Below are positions 13,896 through 20,277 of a stretch of 40,999 bases of DNA, piece after piece (the stretch's first letter is position 1; every line of letters starts with the position of its first letter). Where the stretch lies: the NCBI GenBank assembly GCA_043819035.1, contig JBDRFD010000005.1, positions 1-40,999 of the forward strand. The letters run 5' to 3'. The position numbers were made by a program, and so were the translations under genes. This stretch comes from Patescibacteria group bacterium. GTDB lineage: Bacteria; Patescibacteriota; Gracilibacteria; Peribacterales; Peribacteraceae. The notes beneath the pieces are model-generated. The model saw nothing but the letters and a program-made list of their open reading frames with translations. It was not told the origin of the DNA and ran no database searches.

Positions 13896-14456
13896 AATGA
13901 CAGGGGGAAGGTATTAACAGGAATGGTACATCTGAACCTAAGACCAAGAAAAATGATCTTTGTTGACTTCTCTGTTTTCTAGTGCCTTAAAAATATGTAT
14001 GCTTCTTTAAGATATGAAAAGATTATTATTACTCGTGGCCATTATTTTCCTCGTTTCGTGTGGTCCGGATACTAAATTACCACCAACACCCTCCTCTTCT
14101 GAAGAAGCAATCATTACACGTGTTGTTGACGGCGATACCGTCACTATTCTTCTTAAAGGAAAAATGGAATACGTGCGTATTGTCGGAATTGATGCACCGG
14201 AAAAGGATGATTGCTTCTCTGTGCAGGCTTCTGAGAAAATGCGCAACCTAGTTGAAGGAAAGAGAGCACTTCTTGAAAGCAAGATTGATGAGAATCGCGA
14301 CCAGTATGACCGACTTTTACGTTACCTTTCCGTTGAAGAAATCGACGTTGGAGGGCAAATGCTATACGAAGGATATGCCAGAAATTACCCATGGTTCCCA
14401 CACCCACGTAGCGAGATGTATAAAGAGCTGGAACGTCAATCAAAGGAGAGTTCACT

Positions 14457-15738
14457 CAGTAGCGTCCAAAGAAACTTCGGCATGAACCAGTGATATGACA
14501 AAAAAGCGGTAGAATGAAGTTGTTACCACAACATTCCCCGCTTCTTTGATGTATACGAATTCTACCACAGTTCTCAACCAACTGCTCTACCTTCTTCCCG
14601 AAGAACGCTTTCAGACGTTCGTTGGACAGCATGAAGCCGATCGATACGTGAAGACATTTTCCTGCTTCAATCAGCTCACAACACTCCTGTTTGCGCAGGC
14701 AACAGAGAAGGATTCACTGCGTGATATTTCCACATCACTTCGTTCTCTGGACAGCATGTGGCAGGAAGTGGGGCTCAAAAGCGTTGCCCGTTCTACGATT
14801 GCCTACGCCAACGAACACCGCCCTTGGCAGATTTATCAATCGCTGTTCTATGCATTACTGGAACAGTGTCAGATATTGGTTCCTGGACAGCAAACATTCT
14901 CCTTCAGGAACGATCTGCAGATTCTTGATGCCACCACCATCGATCTCTGTCTCAATCTGTTCCCGTGGGCAAAGTTTCGCACAAGGAAAGGGGCTATCAA
15001 GATCCATACCCGTCTCAACCAGCGTACACAGATTCCCGACATCATCTGCATCACCGATGGCAAGACTCATGAGGTGACGATTGCAAAAGACATGGACTTT
15101 ACCGCCTTTGCCAAAGGCACGATATTCGTGATTGATCGTGGATACTATGACTTGGGACTGTTGCAGAAGATCAAGGACGCGGGACATCACTTCGTCATTC
15201 GTCTGAAGAGCAATGCACAAATCGTGCGTTTGGGGCAGCATCGTAATGCAACTGGCGAGGGAGTGCTCAAAGACGAGTGTATTGCCTTTATGCTCTCTGC
15301 TGCACAGTACAAAGATAATCTGCGTCTGGTCACGTTCTACGATGAAGAGCACGACGTGACGTACGAGTTTCTCACAGATGAGTTCCGTCTATCTGCACTG
15401 AACATTGCCGCCATTTACAAGAAACGCTGGGACATCGAGATTTTCTTCAAATGGATCAAACAGAACTTGAAGATCAAGACCTTCTTTGGAACCTCAAAAA
15501 ACGCTGTGCTTACACAGATTTGGATTGCCATGATCTACTTCCTCCTGCTCAAGTGGCTCAAGCACCAGTTGAACTTCAGAGGATCGCTGACAGATCTCAC
15601 ACGAATGATTGCCACCGTCATTCTCCATAGAGTTCAATTCGTCGAATTAGCCTCATTGAGGCCAAATACACTCAATCGGCTGCGCATCAGAGCTGGTCCG
15701 CAACCAAGTTTGTTCTAAAGTTTCTTTGGACAGTTCTG
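14457..15738 (+). mobile_element. IS4-family insertion sequence, 1282 bp
   Basis: Left end CAGTAGCGTCCAAAGAAACTT; right end reverse-complements to CAGAACTGTCCAAAGAAACTT; identical 9-bp flanks GAGTTCACT at 14448-14456 and 15739-15747. Confidence 0.96.
14549..15718 (+). CDS. IS4-family DDE transposase (DUF4372-like N-terminus)
   Basis: LDATTIDL, IDRGYYD, YKKRWDIEIFFKWIKQ (YREK motif); uninterrupted reading frame. Confidence 0.96.
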   Translation: MYTNSTTVLNQLLYLLPEERFQTFVGQHEADRYVKTFSCFNQLTTLLFAQATEKDSLRDISTSLRSLDSMWQEVGLKSVARSTIAYANEHRPWQIYQSLFYALLEQCQILVPGQQTFSFRNDLQILDATTIDLCLNLFPWAKFRTRKGAIKIHTRLNQRTQIPDIICITDGKTHEVTIAKDMDFTAFAKGTIFVIDRGYYDLGLLQKIKDAGHHFVIRLKSNAQIVRLGQHRNATGEGVLKDECIAFMLSAAQYKDNLRLVTFYDEEHDVTYEFLTDEFRLSALNIAAIYKKRWDIEIFFKWIKQNLKIKTFFGTSKNAVLTQIWIAMIYFLLLKWLKHQLNFRGSLTDLTRMIATVILHRVQFVELASLRPNTLNRLRIRAGPQPSLF

Positions 15739-15773: not shown

Positions 15774-15880
15774 AACAATCAACCTTCAACTATCAACACG
15801 CTTCGCTCTCAACTATCAACAAACATGTTTATCGTACTTTATGCAACCATTGATTGTTGCTTGTTAATTGTTGCTTGTTA
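15774..15880. repeat. Inverted 7-nt repeat arms (TCAACTA / TTGTTGC-TTGTTAA)
   Basis: AACAATCAACCTTCAACTATCAAC...TCAACTATCAACAA versus TTGATTGTTGCTTGTTAATTGTTGCTTGTTA; shares AACACGCTTCG with 2850-2860. Confidence 0.7.
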
Positions 15881-15892
15881 CCATCCCCTCCT

Positions 15893-16414
15893 TTGAAACG
15901 CTTCATCATATTACTCGGCTTACTCTTCCTCACCAGCATCCCAGCGAATGCACGGACGAGTTGCACAGAGATACGTGAGTCAAAGGGGAAAGCTGAATAT
16001 GAAGAATGCCGCATCGATGAGAAGGAGGACGAAATTAAAGAGAACATCAAAAAGTATAAGGATGCTCTCGAGGATCAACAAAAGGACACTGAGGATTACT
16101 ACGAGGACATCATCGGCCGTATTCAGGACCGCCGGAAAGACCTCGATCGACGATTAGAGCGCGAAGAAGACGATGAAAGCGATCGCCTGAAGGATCTGAA
16201 AGATGATGATGCAGATAAAGAGAAGATTGTGAAACAGAAGGAAAAGAGCGACAAAGTGAAGAATGAGCGCAAGGCCGCGAAGAAGTACTTCGATGCATGG
16301 TTAGACGTCATTGAAACGCAACAGAAGCTCGATGAAGCACGAATTGACTTAGAAGCTGCCCAATATGAGTACCAACAGAGGGGAGGATCGACTCAGTGGA
16401 TACGGTGGTACTGA
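15893..16414 (+). CDS. Secreted coiled-coil hypothetical protein
   Basis: TTG start gives the signal peptide MKRFIILLGLLFLTSIPANA, followed by a highly charged E/K/D-rich helical body. Confidence 0.75.
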   Translation: MKRFIILLGLLFLTSIPANARTSCTEIRESKGKAEYEECRIDEKEDEIKENIKKYKDALEDQQKDTEDYYEDIIGRIQDRRKDLDRRLEREEDDESDRLKDLKDDDADKEKIVKQKEKSDKVKNERKAAKKYFDAWLDVIETQQKLDEARIDLEAAQYEYQQRGGSTQWIRWY

Positions 16415-16545
16415 GAAAAGGAAAAAGAGGATAAAAAAGCAAAAGAAGAAAAGGAGAATATATAAAAGAACAATATGGATTTTGCACAAGATATCAGAAA
16501 TCCTTTTTTCCTTTTCATCCTTTTTTTCCTTTTTTGCTTTTGCAT
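16415..16545. repeat. Inverted ~9-nt purine/pyrimidine arms
   Basis: GAAAAGGAAAAAGAGGATAAAAAAGCAAAAG versus TCCTTTTTTCCTTTTCATCCTTTTTTTCCTTTTTTGCTTTTGC. Confidence 0.65.
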
Positions 16546-16625
16546 GAGCCAATAAGTACAACGTCAAATTACGAACACAATTTGTATTCATAAAACGCAC
16601 CCGAGCCCTTGTCTATGGGTAAAAG

Positions 16626-16654
16626 TTGCACTGGTTTTGCAGTGTGAGTAATAT
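16626..16654 (+). promoter_or_regulatory. Sigma70-like promoter of the putative ncRNA
   Basis: TTGCAC (16626-16631) - 17 nt - TAATAT (16649-16654). Confidence 0.6.
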
Positions 16655-16660
16655 GTGCGG

Positions 16661-17319
16661 ATTTGTTCGTGACCAAAAAAACAGAGCAAATCAGAAACAG
16701 AAAGAAAGACAAATACAAACATTTATCCCGCATTGAAGTTCAACTTCTAGTGCGGGACGGGGCGCCCCTCACACAAACACCTTCGATCCTTCACACCACC
16801 GACTGCCACCCCGCACCACTCCCATCCATGTGCGGGCCGAGCAAGAGTAGATAGGAGGGGAGCCAATCCCCTTTTCACCCATTGACGCCTAGTGCGCTCC
16901 TCTCGAGAGGCCGTACCGGACGAAAGCGGGCCCCGAAAGCTTCGTCTTCCGCTCAGTCACACACCTTTATTTCTTAGGTTCTAGCTGAGGAACTGGAAAT
17001 GCATAAGCTAACGGGACAGGACGGCTCCCATCCTCTCTGCTCTGCGATGACGTACCGTAGATGGGAGGTCGCTTTACGGTATGCATCCCTTCCTCCCCAT
17101 GGTCTCCTTTGCCCTTGTGCATTGTTTTGAGTCCTGGTTCGGGGACCTCGTTCGGTTGCGAGGAGAAACAAGAAACCTGAGCAAGGCAGAGGTTCGAGGG
17201 CTCCTCCTCTCAGTCAGCTTCCTCAATTAAGAACGGCTCAGCGGTAGTAAATACTTCTGATAGCCAAGGAAGCAAGACACAAACACAAAAAAGGCCAGAG
17301 GTTTCTTCTGGTCTTTTTT
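16661..17319 (+). ncRNA. Putative large structured non-coding RNA (~660 nt), family not recognised
   Basis: No credible CDS; bounded by promoter and terminator; many helices (16726-16732/16751-16757, 16810-16816/16830-16836, 16986-16995/17215-17225, 17106-17113/17185-17192) and a pseudoknot (17025-17032/17060-17067 crossing 17053-17059/17075-17081). Confidence 0.6.
17287..17319 (+). terminator. Intrinsic terminator
   Basis: AAAAAA-GGCCAGAG-gtttc-TTCTGGTC-TTTTTT; the G-U pairs are valid only on the + strand transcript. Confidence 0.75.
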
Positions 17320-17323
17320 GAAT

Positions 17324-17404
17324 GTCTGGAACCAGATTCACATGATTTCTAGATGAATAGGATTAATCCTGTAATCCTTTAATCCTGTGAATCATGGTTC
17401 AGAC
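17324..17404. repeat. GTCTGAAYC-family element, copy 4
   Basis: GTCTGGAACCAGATTCACA ... TGTGAATCATGGTTCAGAC with internal TAATCCT units. Confidence 0.8.
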
Positions 17405-17429
17405 ATTTCTCTGTCATTACTTCTTCCAC

Positions 17430-17547
17430 GTCTGAACCACGGATTAAACGGATTGTACGGATTACACGGATAACTTAATAAATAATCTGACTATATTTAA
17501 CGAACATCCGTGTAATCCGCTTAATCAGCGTAATCCGTGATTCAGAC
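17430..17547. repeat. GTCTGAAYC-family element, copy 5
   Basis: GTCTGAACCACGGATTAAACGGATTGTACGGATTACACGGAT ... ATCCGTGTAATCCGCTTAATCAGCGTAATCCGTGATTCAGAC; contains the stop codon of the adjacent ATPase gene. Confidence 0.88.
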
Positions 17548-20277
17548 AATGTTCGTTTCCTTTTTATCCTTTTTTTCCTTCAATTGCAAAAGCGTCTTAC
17601 TCGGCTCCGGCACTCCCCCGCTCTCTTTGAGCTTCTTCTCGAGTTCCGCCATCTCCTTCTTCTCATCGTCACTTAAAGCTTCTCCCATAAAGTCCTTCTT
17701 GCGAATCATATTAAAATCATTCACCCACATTTCCCGATCACGCCACTTACGATATTCATCCAGTTTCATGCCCTTTTTACGTGCCTTCTTGACCTCTTCC
17801 TCTTCCTTCTCTTTTGCCTTACCCGCCTGCTTAGCATCCTTTCTCCCCTCTGCAGCAGACTGTGCCCACTTGTAGATCTTACCCTCGACCTCGCTGCGAG
17901 ACTTGCTGTATCGCTCACGCGAAAGGCTCCGAAGCGTCTGCACACGCCCTGGGTCTTGTTTGAACACAGGTGGCGGCAGCGTGGTCACGGAGAACGGCTT
18001 CGAAGGAACGCCATCAATCATCACGCGTGCGTATGCATGGTACTTGGGCAGACTTAAGATGTCCTTTGCAGTCACCATTTCTTCAAACTGCAAACTCATT
18101 TCTTCCGCATCATCACTGCCTACCTGGAAGCTGATGAGGGATCCGACGTTTCCGAAGACGGCATCACGAAGTGCAGTGTTTTTATCATCAATCAAAAGCT
18201 GCGCCACGTACTGGTTCGCCATCGTCAGAGAGAGGCGATATTTGCGCGCCTCGGAGAGAATGGTGGCAAACGATTCGGTCGCAAAGTTCTGGAACTCATC
18301 AACGTAAAGATAAAAATCTTTACGCTCTGCTTCCGGAATATCTGCGCGGCTCATCGCATCAATCTGGAATTTGGTCACAAGCATCGATCCGAGGAACGCA
18401 GACACGTCTTCACCCAGTTTTCCTTTACTCAAATTGACAAGGACAATCTTGCCGGTATCCATCGCATGGCGAAGGTCCACAGAGCTCTTCACCTGCCCGA
18501 CAATGTTGCGCATGATGGGAGTAGAGAGAAGTTGGCCGACTTTGTTCTGGATGGCTGAAATTGCCTCGGTGCGGTACTTCTCTGACCATTGTGCGTACTC
18601 ATCTTGCCAGAAACTTTTGACCAGTGGATCGGTGATCTTTTCCACAACTTTAGAACGGTATGCATCGTCAGCGAACATGCGCATAATCCCCAACATCGAG
18701 GAACCTTGGTACTCCAGAAGTGCCAGAAGTGTATTGCGGAGTATGTGCTTCATGCGCTCACTCCATACATCCGGCCAGAGTTTGGTAAATACTCCCATCA
18801 GACCTGATGCGACAATCGGGCGCTGGTCGGGATCGGTTGCCTCCAGCATATTGAAGGAAATAGGGAAGTCCCGATCTGCCGGATCGAAGAGGATGATGTC
18901 GTTCGAGCGGCTCTTTGGAATGAACTGCATGATTGCATCGATGAGATCGCCGTGTGGATCAATGACACCAACCCCCTTACCCTCATGCACATCCGAGAAG
19001 ACCATGTTCTCCAAGAGCGTGGATTTTCCCATTCCCGTTTTTCCGATGCAATAGATATGTCGCCTGCGGTCGTCGGGGCGGATACCAAATTTTGTTCGCT
19101 GTCCGCGGAACACTGCTTCCCCAAGGATTGTAACTTCCTTTTCCTCTGCAAGTGGTAAGTCGATGGGTGGTTCTAGCTTCTTACTCAGCACCCAATCAAT
19201 GTTCGGTGTTTGCACGAGAATCGTCGGTGGATGCCAAATGGTCGCAATTTCCTCAACGGATAAAATGTATGGAGTCGTATCGTGCCCATGTGACATGCGT
19301 GCTCCTTGCTTAATCTTTCCCAATTCAAAAGCATTACAATTGGGAAGAGAAAATTGGCGAAAACTCCCCGCTATTTCCTCCACCTTTGCAGTGGCTTGTT
19401 CCCTATTGCCCGCCGGTGCAATGACACTGATTCTCACATTACACAAAAACATCAGGCGATTGGCTTTATCCAGAGCCGCAGTAAGCGCATTCTCACGATC
19501 ATGTGAACGTGTGCTTGCGCGCTCAATTTCCTCTTCTTCGGGATCGGAAGAAATAGAAGCAGTATCACCTGTCATCTTAATAGGCGCTGTAAAGTATTTG
19601 TTAAACCCCGGCCAGGCGCGAAATCCCCCCATAATAAATGCAACAGGCAGGAAGGCGATCCTTCTCCAGCCGCGAGCCAACTGCATTCTTGTAAAAAAAC
19701 ATGCGTAGTTGTCCGATAGAGATGCAATTCCCTTATCCAGCAAAGGAATAAATCTAATCGCCCTGTGGCGGAACCTCCAGCCGATTGGCTTCATAACAAT
19801 CTGCACATGGCCCCGCATTCCTGGGACCGGAGACCTGGAAAAAGATGAAGTTATTCCGGCAATTGGGTCAACATTCACCCGCGTAAGAATGTCATCGAAC
19901 TGCGGATGGCGCTTGATGGGATAAATCTCCGGATCGGTGAGCTCGAGTTCAGCAGTGAATACTTCTTCTCCTTCCTTCGCCGCAAAAGGATCATCCTGTA
20001 CCTGTTCGATATCCACATCAGGATACTGCGCATAGAGTTGTCCTTCCGCCAATCGCACAGCGCGTTCATTCCCCCTCACAAAAAAACCGATTTTTCCTTC
20101 CCGCGTCATTCCAACTTCCATACTGACCATTTGATTCTTATCTTTCAAAGAATGCAGTGCCGCAATAGCAGGTTCCATATACAGCGGACCACGGTTGTGC
20201 CTGTCCTCAGGGTCTGCATGGGCCGGACGAATTCGAAGAAGTTTTGATATCATGAGACACATTGAGAAAACGAACAC
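17542..20277 (-). CDS. VirB4/TrwB(TraG)/HerA-like P-loop ATPase
   Basis: DRRRHIYCIGKTGMGKS Walker A, IDPHGD, LYVDEFQNF Walker B, LSEARKYRLSLTMANQY. True start may be ATG 20253. Confidence 0.9.
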   Translation of the reverse strand: MFVFSMCLMISKLLRIRPAHADPEDRHNRGPLYMEPAIAALHSLKDKNQMVSMEVGMTREGKIGFFVRGNERAVRLAEGQLYAQYPDVDIEQVQDDPFAAKEGEEVFTAELELTDPEIYPIKRHPQFDDILTRVNVDPIAGITSSFSRSPVPGMRGHVQIVMKPIGWRFRHRAIRFIPLLDKGIASLSDNYACFFTRMQLARGWRRIAFLPVAFIMGGFRAWPGFNKYFTAPIKMTGDTASISSDPEEEEIERASTRSHDRENALTAALDKANRLMFLCNVRISVIAPAGNREQATAKVEEIAGSFRQFSLPNCNAFELGKIKQGARMSHGHDTTPYILSVEEIATIWHPPTILVQTPNIDWVLSKKLEPPIDLPLAEEKEVTILGEAVFRGQRTKFGIRPDDRRRHIYCIGKTGMGKSTLLENMVFSDVHEGKGVGVIDPHGDLIDAIMQFIPKSRSNDIILFDPADRDFPISFNMLEATDPDQRPIVASGLMGVFTKLWPDVWSERMKHILRNTLLALLEYQGSSMLGIMRMFADDAYRSKVVEKITDPLVKSFWQDEYAQWSEKYRTEAISAIQNKVGQLLSTPIMRNIVGQVKSSVDLRHAMDTGKIVLVNLSKGKLGEDVSAFLGSMLVTKFQIDAMSRADIPEAERKDFYLYVDEFQNFATESFATILSEARKYRLSLTMANQYVAQLLIDDKNTALRDAVFGNVGSLISFQVGSDDAEEMSLQFEEMVTAKDILSLPKYHAYARVMIDGVPSKPFSVTTLPPPVFKQDPGRVQTLRSLSRERYSKSRSEVEGKIYKWAQSAAEGRKDAKQAGKAKEKEEEEVKKARKKGMKLDEYRKWRDREMWVNDFNMIRKKDFMGEALSDDEKKEMAELEKKLKESGGVPEPSKTLLQLKEKKDKKETNIV

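Follow-up and report, generated by a model that had tools for sequence, protein, structure and literature searches.

Large structured RNAs are rarely discovered in bacteria, and the known ones (OLE, ROOL and GOLLD) have led to unexpected biology. OLE RNA is found in the Firmicutes, where partner genes such as oapA lie adjacent to it; the distribution of ROOL and GOLLD is patchy or phage-linked. One report (PMC12286853) describes ROOL and GOLLD as forming homo-oligomers. Here we analyze a locus that invites comparison with these RNAs in a Patescibacteria group bacterium of the family Peribacteraceae, a member of the candidate phyla radiation (CPR). It lies on contig JBDRFD010000005.1 of assembly GCA_043819035.1 (genome of 1.29 Mb, hereafter G000), and the window referred to throughout is this entire contig of 40,999 bases. 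We are highly confident that positions 16660-17319 of the plus strand are a genuine stand-alone gene for a structured non-coding RNA. Its length of ~660 nucleotides (nt) agrees with the size class, that of large ornate RNAs in the OLE, ROOL and GOLLD range, proposed in a preliminary description of the sequence. As to its role, we incline, with reserve, to the view that this conserved large non-coding RNA is a folded scaffold working in trans.

A conserved core with covarying helices and tertiary contacts

A blastn search with positions 16600-17330 returned matches in 31/36 genomes of the same family and in 1 (marginal) of 24 genomes of other families. One genome (G001) alone was matched over the full length, with 81% identity; all other matches were confined to the 3' ~300 nt (~17019-17321, 70-87% identity), which on this sequence evidence is the conserved core (17022-17319). 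A covariance model built on the core (R1, 182 positions, 90 aligned matches of which 82 are distinct) found the RNA in 93/101 genomes of the family (78/82 among the high-quality ones), so that the homologue search proposed in the preliminary description succeeded by either method. The core and the 3' end of the gene are organized as follows:

17022-17045, plus strand: 3' strand of helix P0 (17022-40), overlapping the 5' strand of helix P1, CUCUGCUCUGC (17034-45)
17034-17045 with 17181-17192, plus strand: helix P1, 3' strand GCAAGGCAGAGG
17051-17083, plus strand: hairpin H2 (17051-58 with 17076-83), loop GAGG at 17065-68
17094-17145, plus strand: H3, UCCCC (17094-98) with GGGGA (17141-45); inner helix 17101-06/17129-34 and hairpin 17110-21
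17146-17177, plus strand: H4 (17146-51 with 17158-63), A-rich strand AGAAACAAGA (17164-73) and pseudoknot
17197-17210, plus strand: hairpin H5, loop CUCCUC (17201-06), of which CCUC (17203-06) is the kissing partner of the H2 loop
17217-17273, plus strand: 3' domain, helix Z GCUUCCU (17217-23) with AGGAAGC (17267-73), enclosing hairpin GGCUCAG...CUGAUAGCC (17235-65)
17274-17319, plus strand: CA-rich tail AAGACACAAACACAAAAAA and intrinsic terminator (stem 17293-17313, T-run ending at 17319)

The preliminary description had named covariation among homologues as a check, and it was readily observed. For an alignment of 20 sequences, each from a different genome, RNAalifold predicted 53 pairs, and compensatory changes were observed at 21 of these. 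Across the 82 distinct sequences, pseudoknot included, 96.0% of the cells held standard pairs, compared to 42.7-51.5% when the 3' partners were slid by one to three columns; 25 of the 41 core pairs change on both sides, and none of 500 shuffles reached any of these measures. Helix P1 is paired in 97.7% of the cells, with nearly invariant outer pairs and a covarying innermost pair (CG 65, UA 7, UG 7). All eight pairs of H2 vary on both sides (96% of cells paired), as do all five stem pairs of H5, and H3 is paired in 100% of the cells, four of its five pairs changing on both sides. The inner helix within H3 was drawn by RNAalifold, with compensating changes read by eye from the alignment. In the 3' domain, the pairs of hairpin 17235-65 covary in the RNAalifold set, and the strands of helix Z form a more stable duplex when matched than when mismatched (-12.7 versus -10.6 kcal/mol, 68 sequences).

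Two further contacts involve loops. The H4 loop (GGUY; GGUU here, 17154-57) pairs with RACC (AACC here, 17174-77) in an H-type pseudoknot, as expected from the preliminary description, which had announced a pseudoknot. Its pairs are GC in 81/82 and 82/82 sequences, UA in 80/82 and, for the one that covaries, UA in 40, CG in 34, UG in 2 and other combinations in 6. These columns are unpaired in the model, and a blind stack scan recovered the same pairing. The second contact is a kissing interaction between the H5 and H2 loops, which change in a matched manner (CUCCUU/AAGGAG, UUCCUC/GAGGAA, AUCCUC/GAGGAU, AACCUC/GAGGUU and UUCUC/GAGAA); the mean complementary run is 4.49 for matched loops versus 4.17 for permuted ones (standard deviation 0.07, maximum 4.38 of 200 permutations). 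Beyond the known helices, a single-column covariation scan for extra tertiary pairs returned mostly phylogenetic noise.

By contrast, the long-range helix that the preliminary description had drawn between 16978-95 and 17215-34 was not supported, as it shows no covariation: matched and mismatched strands have similar energies (-10.9 versus -11.2 kcal/mol). The helix is strong in G000 (-17.3 kcal/mol), its energies in two close relatives being -7.4 and -2.1 kcal/mol, and its strands are used instead by helix Z and by helix X of the 5' region (see below).

The kissing interaction bears on the possibility that the RNA regulates by titration or base-pairing, in which case its linkers would bind a protein, as in CrcZ or CsrB, or its CUCCUC loop and the 5' motif CCUUCACAC would bind Shine-Dalgarno-like regions of mRNAs, as in RNAIII. 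The H5 loop is identical to the anti-Shine-Dalgarno core; three conserved CA- or A-rich unpaired stretches (16693-16725, 16769-81 and 17274-92) are partly (ARN)n-like; the terminator provides a U-tail; and many genomes hold two paralogous copies, as with several sponge RNAs. However, the covariation between the H5 and H2 loops indicates that the former is probably used within the RNA itself, and the ornate conserved tertiary core exceeds what a sponge needs. A genome search for complements of the 5' motif or the A-rich strand yielded seven sites with at most one mismatch, among them the opposite strand of the gene itself, and no rRNA or recurrent target; nothing specific emerged for these two elements or for the H5 loop. 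A search of G000 for Hfq with PF17209 gave two candidates, neither significant, with a filter that may miss divergent domains. We consider titration or base-pairing unlikely.

Coding potential, strand, boundaries and RNA-library coverage of the gene

The preliminary description had seen here a gap with no credible coding sequence, and this stands. Within 16415-17541 no open reading frame (ORF) exceeds 65 amino acids (the longest have 65 on the minus strand and 63 on the plus strand), and few aligned homologues retain each of the four small ORFs of the core intact (4/20, 1/20, 2/20 and 4/20), which rules out a small protein gene.

The RNA was assigned to the plus strand because G-U pairs are frequent or invariant (UG 79/79 in P1, GU 53 in H2, UG 51 in H4), an argument already put forward in the preliminary description, and because 16661-17319 folds far better on that strand (z = -6.5 versus -2.6 for the minus strand). 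The plus-strand minimum free energy (MFE) is -230 kcal/mol, and none of 20 shuffles was as good.

The gene has its own promoter:

16626-16654, plus strand: promoter, -35 TTGCAC (16626-31), 17-nt spacer, -10 TAATAT (16649-54)

The layout at the locus is TTGCAC-N17-TAATAT-N5-GATTTG, which places the probable start of transcription at G16660 or close to it. The promoter agrees with 7 of 12 consensus positions and was not reported by a simple consensus promoter scan. Likewise, the terminator hairpin is bidirectional, and the consensus scan reported a terminator-like site on the minus strand only. Both elements were nevertheless accepted because homologues share them: the layout cTTGCnn-N17-TA(C/T)(A/G)AT-N5-GATTT(G/C) was found by regular expression 5' of 65/80 homologues, and the terminator stem and T-run are kept in 20/20 aligned sequences, with covariation in the stem. 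By blastn, G004 and G005 match the region 16600-16650 with 82% identity. In sequence terms, the promoter is of the sigma-70 type, conserved, and at a fixed distance from a 5' hairpin described below. In the 80 homologues, the sequence lying 5' of the conserved block is further RNA and not promoter. Counted from GATTT through the T-run, the RNA has an estimated median length of 507 nt (range 309-803, 67 homologues), some of the extreme lengths probably being due to mis-assigned starts. Overall, the extent (~16660 to 17319), promoter and plus-strand terminator predicted in the preliminary description appear correct, and every motif that it named was found in its place.

Among 22 listed sequencing runs, two groundwater metatranscriptome libraries (X4 and X6, from one study) hold part of the locus. 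The X4 contigs lie on 17034-17088 and 17059-17273 and the X6 contig on 17059-17240; they show 3-4 differences. Coverage of the region is broader in two DNA runs. The contigs are consistent with transcription of the core. Of the transcript anticipated in the preliminary description, the RNA-library contigs cover 17034-17273; no X4 or X6 contig lies on 16300-17033 or past 17273, so that they are uninformative on the 5' half and on processing.

The 5' domain, helix P0 and the variable insert

Upstream of the core, the RNA comprises the following elements:

16660-16692, plus strand: 5' terminal hairpin, GAUUUGUUC...GAGCAAAUC
16693-16725, plus strand: A-rich unpaired linker AGAAACAGAAAGAAAGACAAAUACAAACA, with CA/A-rich linkers at the same place in homologues
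16726-16757, plus strand: hairpin a, UCCCGCA/UGCGGGA
16759-16768, plus strand: perfect GC palindrome GGGGCGCCCC, with CA-rich linkers on both sides
16785-16800, plus strand: conserved motif GAUCCUUCACACCACC, apparently unpaired
16810-16836, plus strand: hairpin b, CCCGCAC/GUGCGGG, sequence verified and kept in the G001-like relative
16846-16865, plus strand: 5' strand of P0, GUAGA-U-AGGA-G-GGGAGCC, pairing with 17022-17040
16866-17021, plus strand: variable insert between the P0 strands (hairpin d, hairpin e, helix X)
16899-16910, plus strand: hairpin d, palindromic, CCTCTCGAGAGG
16919-16946, plus strand: hairpin e, GACGAA/TTCGTC
16947-16956 with 16985-16998, plus strand: helix X, UUCC-G-CUCAG with CUGAG-GAACU-GGAA

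In 53/67 full-length homologues, the hairpin that starts at nucleotide 1 comprises 5 bp or more; it is also present in the MFE fold and varies at positions 6-8 as GC, CG and AU pairs. The leader that the preliminary description regarded as A-rich and unstructured is therefore unpaired in its second part (16693-16725) and folded in its first (16660-16692). Hairpin a, also pointed out there, is present in the sequence and missing at this place in L100, a G001-like record and the one close relative inspected; it is apparently a lineage-specific insertion. A perfect GC-rich palindrome of 10-14 nt was found between nt 20 and 200 in 40/67 full-length homologues, compared to 2.6 on average, and 7 at most, in shuffled sequences. 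The motif C(C/A)UUCACAYCAY was found by regular expression in 42/80 upstream regions, always 5' of P0, and sits right after the start in a distant homologue (G172, see below).

The 5' domain is joined to the core by P0. In G000, 16846-16865 and 17022-17040 form a duplex of -28.1 kcal/mol (RNAduplex), and the three-part helix is found in 12/12 close relatives with compensation, for example from GGGAGCC/GGCUCCC to GGUAGCC/GGCUACC. Family-wide, G(C/U)AGAGAGG and a variable extension pair with an extension plus CCUCUCUGC over up to 19 bp, the variable parts compensating each other; P0 was also recovered by RNAalifold. Hairpin c of the preliminary description (16856/16867) exists as sequence, but it overlaps the conserved P0 and competes with it. 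Within the insert, RNAalifold applied to the 12 close relatives recovered hairpin d, another prediction of that description, which is thus supported within the genus-level group, along with helix X, whose CUCAG/CUGAG becomes CCCAG/CUGGG.

At loci of other species (L087, L089, L130, L083, L139, L086, L125, L079 and L142), hairpins made of short repeats of their own, with units such as GGGATTAG, GAATAGAATAAT and CGAAATTCGAA, occur upstream of or inside the RNA gene. Because several of them sit between the P0 strands, it would seem that repeat hairpins are either tolerated in the variable insert or attracted to it.

Positions 17034-40 are shared between two helices: they can pair upstream, in P0, or downstream, in the outer part of P1 (with 17185-92), and the two purine strands that compete for them are near-identical (GCAGAG). 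Such mutually exclusive conserved pairings would suit a ribozyme or a ligand sensor, in which the pseudoknot with AAACAAGA would form the active site or pocket and the P0/P1 alternative would act as a switch. The invariant unpaired nucleotides within the pseudoknotted junction and the maintenance of the family across the whole order point the same way. Against this, Rfam 15 gave no match to a self-cleaving ribozyme, a group I or II intron or a riboswitch, no cleavage site could be inferred, and no gene lies downstream on the same strand for a switch to control. A catalytic or sensing role seems to us somewhat less likely still than regulation by titration or base-pairing.

Distribution, copy number and synteny

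On the evidence of homologous sequences, the RNA is kept in nearly all genomes of its family. Besides the counts given above, R1 matched 40/41 genomes of an order-level sample (which contained this family alone) and, in a class sample, 15/15 genomes of the family and 2/135 others, both marginally. In a species-representative genome collection, 112 stretches contain the exact core pattern; among the matches listed (80 of 112), 75 are titled Candidatus Peribacteria, Peribacteraceae, Peribacterales, Peribacter or Peregrinibacteria. The same pattern scanned against viral contigs gave 0 matches, and carriage by phages was accordingly rejected.

The two marginal matches of the class sample (G172 and G200) carry family hallmarks. 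The G172 homologue begins with the promoter-GATTTG start and contains the CCUUCACAAC motif and P0; it also has the 3' hairpin and a terminator, and is without the 5' hairpin. Half models that included these two distant matches (R2 and R3) matched, at E values up to 0.05, 9/15 genomes of family f8 and the single genome of family f28, versus 0/119 in the remaining families. In one genome (G073), matches to the 5'-half and 3'-half models are collinear at two loci. Because weak half-model matches are collinear in this way, diverged relatives probably exist in two further families, and the true range of the RNA family is wider than these models can delimit. The candidate diverged homologues are:

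G172:C43:14615-15060 (L198)
G200:C1:265402-265617 (L199)
G073:C1:137886-138211 and 715316-715641

G000 carries one copy of the gene and many genomes carry two. Of the 17 genomes in which one contig carries at least two copies, 13 have them in convergent orientation at a distance of 20-33 kb (G017:C1:228241-257895, G031:C1:187963-215500 and 11 more). Positions 17.5-38 kb of the window show synteny with the intervening block, which encodes a TraD/TrwB-like ATPase, HrcA, GyrA and other housekeeping proteins. As judged from their sequences, the two copies are old paralogues of different architecture and not homogenised repeats. In the form with the X domain, as in G000, the TraD-like gene is convergent downstream in 15/25 cases with room; for the form without it, this neighbour was recorded in 2/39 cases, both X-type copies overlooked by the regular expression. 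Considering the homologous loci together, the gene downstream (the TraD/TrwB-like ATPase) is convergent in at least 13/20, the gene upstream is divergent in 6, and an ORF of ~185 amino acids rich in K and E is a conserved upstream neighbour in relatives (9 loci).

The convergent arrangement of the copies, together with the bidirectional terminator hairpin, could suggest an element acting at the DNA level or in cis, either as inverted repeats at the two ends of a ~28-kb segment, where they would serve for recombination or adopt single-strand DNA structures, or as a complex bidirectional terminator region lying between convergent genes. We consider this very improbable: the conserved G-U pairs would become A-C mismatches on the opposite strand, the spacing between the conserved promoter and the 5' hairpin is constant, the copies differ in architecture as just described, the genome under study has a single one, and RNA-library contigs cover the core.

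Comparison with known RNA families

The preliminary description could match the sequence to no known family, and the same outcome was obtained with covariance models. The window was scanned with cmscan against all 4227 families of Rfam 15 at gathering level, and 16400-17600 at E values up to 10. The former search returned only a tRNA, the latter at best a plant microRNA family in a low-complexity stretch (E = 0.07), and 20 homologous loci gave 0 matches at gathering level. Rfam 15 includes OLE, ROOL, GOLLD, raiA, HEARO and other large RNAs, none of whose models gave a match. Group I and group II introns and self-cleaving ribozymes gave no Rfam matches either, and the locus is intergenic. A riboswitch or cis-acting leader does not fit, since the RNA ends in a terminator and the next gene (TraD/TrwB-like by Pfam) is convergent.

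A very divergent version of a known RNA was also considered. RNase P RNA and tmRNA gave no match at the locus and are encoded elsewhere in the genome (G000:C100:12235-12679, 130.3 bits, and G000:C25:8794-9199, 82.6 bits). Similarly, 6S RNA (RF00013) was not matched at the locus, and a 6S-like match at G000:C96:267-418 (42.9 bits, for a gathering score of 46.4) is probably the 6S RNA of this genome. The RNA of the signal recognition particle (SRP) leaves a vacancy, as none was found in the whole genome, nor in 41 genomes of the family and 41 of the class, and a divergent SRP RNA was envisaged for that reason. The P1 strands (CUCUG.../...AAGGCAGAG) resemble helix 5 of Escherichia coli 4.5S RNA. 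However, the SRP models (RF00169 and RF01854) gave no match on 16400-17600 at E values up to 10, and the protein components are missing as well. The Ffh M domain was not found in G000 or 40 relatives by a first-look filter that may lose divergent genes; no SRP54-type GTPase (Ffh/FtsY) was found in 81 genomes of the phylum by Pfam search, which gave P-loop-level matches only, or in G000 by a six-frame motif scan. The absence is known already, a published account reporting that many CPR bacteria lack two SRP subunits (PMC8080830). A divergent SRP RNA was thus rejected on account of the missing proteins, this published observation and a fold that is a multi-way junction architecture rather than the SRP rod. 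With no Rfam family better than the microRNA match mentioned above, a disguised SRP, 6S, RNase P, tmRNA, OLE, ROOL or GOLLD RNA is scarcely credible and the least probable of the explanations considered here.

We regard the RNA as a new family, of the informal kind known as large ornate bacterial RNAs: it exceeds 400 nt, has its own signals, covarying helices and tertiary contacts, and contains no conserved ORF. No description of it was found in the literature on RNAs of Peribacteria, Peregrinibacteria or Patescibacteria, of which the supplements may list such motifs, and the literature on ROOL, GOLLD and OLE yielded no CPR term. No paper on the SRP of Peribacteria was found either.

Neighbouring sequence

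Upstream of the locus lie a staphylococcal-nuclease-like gene (14014-14493) and an IS4-type DDE transposase gene (14546-15718; DDE_Tnp_1, DUF4372). A KE-rich ORF of 186 amino acids (15854-16414) follows, and directly after its stop codon a purine-rich stretch, GAAAAGGAAAAAGAGGATAAAAAAGCAAAAG, and then its pyrimidine-rich complement form a long hairpin (16417-16545), which gave spurious weak Rfam matches only, to microRNA families and a Plasmodium RNase P model.

Downstream of the terminator are two long imperfect palindromes (17330-17406 and 17430-17552), bounded by GTCTGAA...TTCAGAC, the arms of which consist of ~9-nt tandem units, ACGGATTAN and its complement. The second element was matched by blastn in 46 pieces on at least 12 contigs of G000, including a near-complete copy at C17:10482-10600 (94%), and is multi-copy in DNA metagenome runs (depth 30-82 versus 13). 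From its sequence and copy number, it looks like a dispersed repeat resembling miniature inverted-repeat transposable elements.

Discussion

How might such an RNA work? The scaffold reading, which we hold to be slightly better founded than not, would make it the RNA component of a ribonucleoprotein, or of an assembly made of RNA alone, that binds through the invariant strand AAACAAGA of the pseudoknot and through the unpaired motif CCUUCACAC of the 5' domain, and would exclude action as an antisense regulator or cis element. It was favored because tertiary contacts and invariant unpaired nucleotides go together with near-universal presence and conserved synteny, and because the most target-like loop, that of H5, is probably used internally. 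Action in trans is suggested by the lack of a cis gene to regulate, given the convergent downstream and divergent upstream neighbors. The excess of perfect GC palindromes was also counted in favor of a scaffold. The alternative pairing of CCUCUCUGC, upstream in P0 or downstream in the outer part of P1, would suggest a folding switch or a processing stem, which is speculation on our part.

Several observations weigh against this interpretation or the structure beneath it. Pairs were counted on an alignment that had been fitted to the model, a procedure that favors the nested helices; the pseudoknot is supported by one covarying pair and three invariant ones; and the kissing-loop excess is small, some consensus H2 loops also fitting variant H5 loops. 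P0 and the outer part of P1 are mutually exclusive, so that either may form, or both at different times. The RNA-library contigs may reflect DNA carry-over, and give no ends, strand or level. Finally, no partner protein, ligand or target was found, and no conserved neighbor hints at a function, the TraD-like gene being tied to one paralogous form.

A bolder version of the scaffold reading, to which we would grant only a modest chance, is that the RNA self-assembles. The GC palindrome, which stays palindromic while its sequence changes and is flanked by flexible CA-rich linkers, would then be an intermolecular dimerisation site, and the P0/P1 alternative would govern assembly or maturation of a lineage-specific RNA-based particle. 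If this were true, an ultra-small bacterial lineage with no detected SRP would possess an RNA-based particle of its own.

Whatever its function, the RNA is present almost throughout an order of CPR bacteria that are ultra-small, uncultured and of largely unstudied cell biology. It would supply a family missing from Rfam and could serve as a target for structure determination, as an annotation marker for Peribacteria genomes and as a handle on lineage-specific biology.

Among the systems with which the RNA may be compared, the CrcZ and CsrB sponges share with it repeated unpaired A- or CA-rich stretches and, often, two paralogous copies per genome. They differ in that here no Hfq domain was found, the linkers are three only and conservation resides mostly in the structured core. 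RNAIII of Staphylococcus aureus, of ~500 nt, likewise has its own promoter and terminator, many hairpins and a C/U-rich loop complementary to the Shine-Dalgarno sequence; by contrast, the present RNA has no conserved ORF, a C-rich loop that covaries internally, a conserved tertiary core and no link to quorum sensing.

ROOL and GOLLD are closer in kind, being large ornate orphan RNAs, and by analogy the GC palindrome could play an intermolecular role comparable to theirs. The present RNA differs from them by the absence of an Rfam match, by its absence from the viral contigs scanned (0 matches) and by its near-universal presence with conserved chromosomal synteny. With respect to OLE RNA, the differences are again the lack of an Rfam match, a pseudoknot and kissing-loop core unrelated in sequence, a CPR host, and loci at which no conserved adjacent partner genes like oapA were seen. 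In other respects the likeness is close: both are hundreds of nucleotides long with many covarying helices, both are encoded by a stand-alone, lineage-restricted gene whose function is not readable from its neighbours, and the RNA described here, like OLE RNA, would likely work as a folded scaffold.

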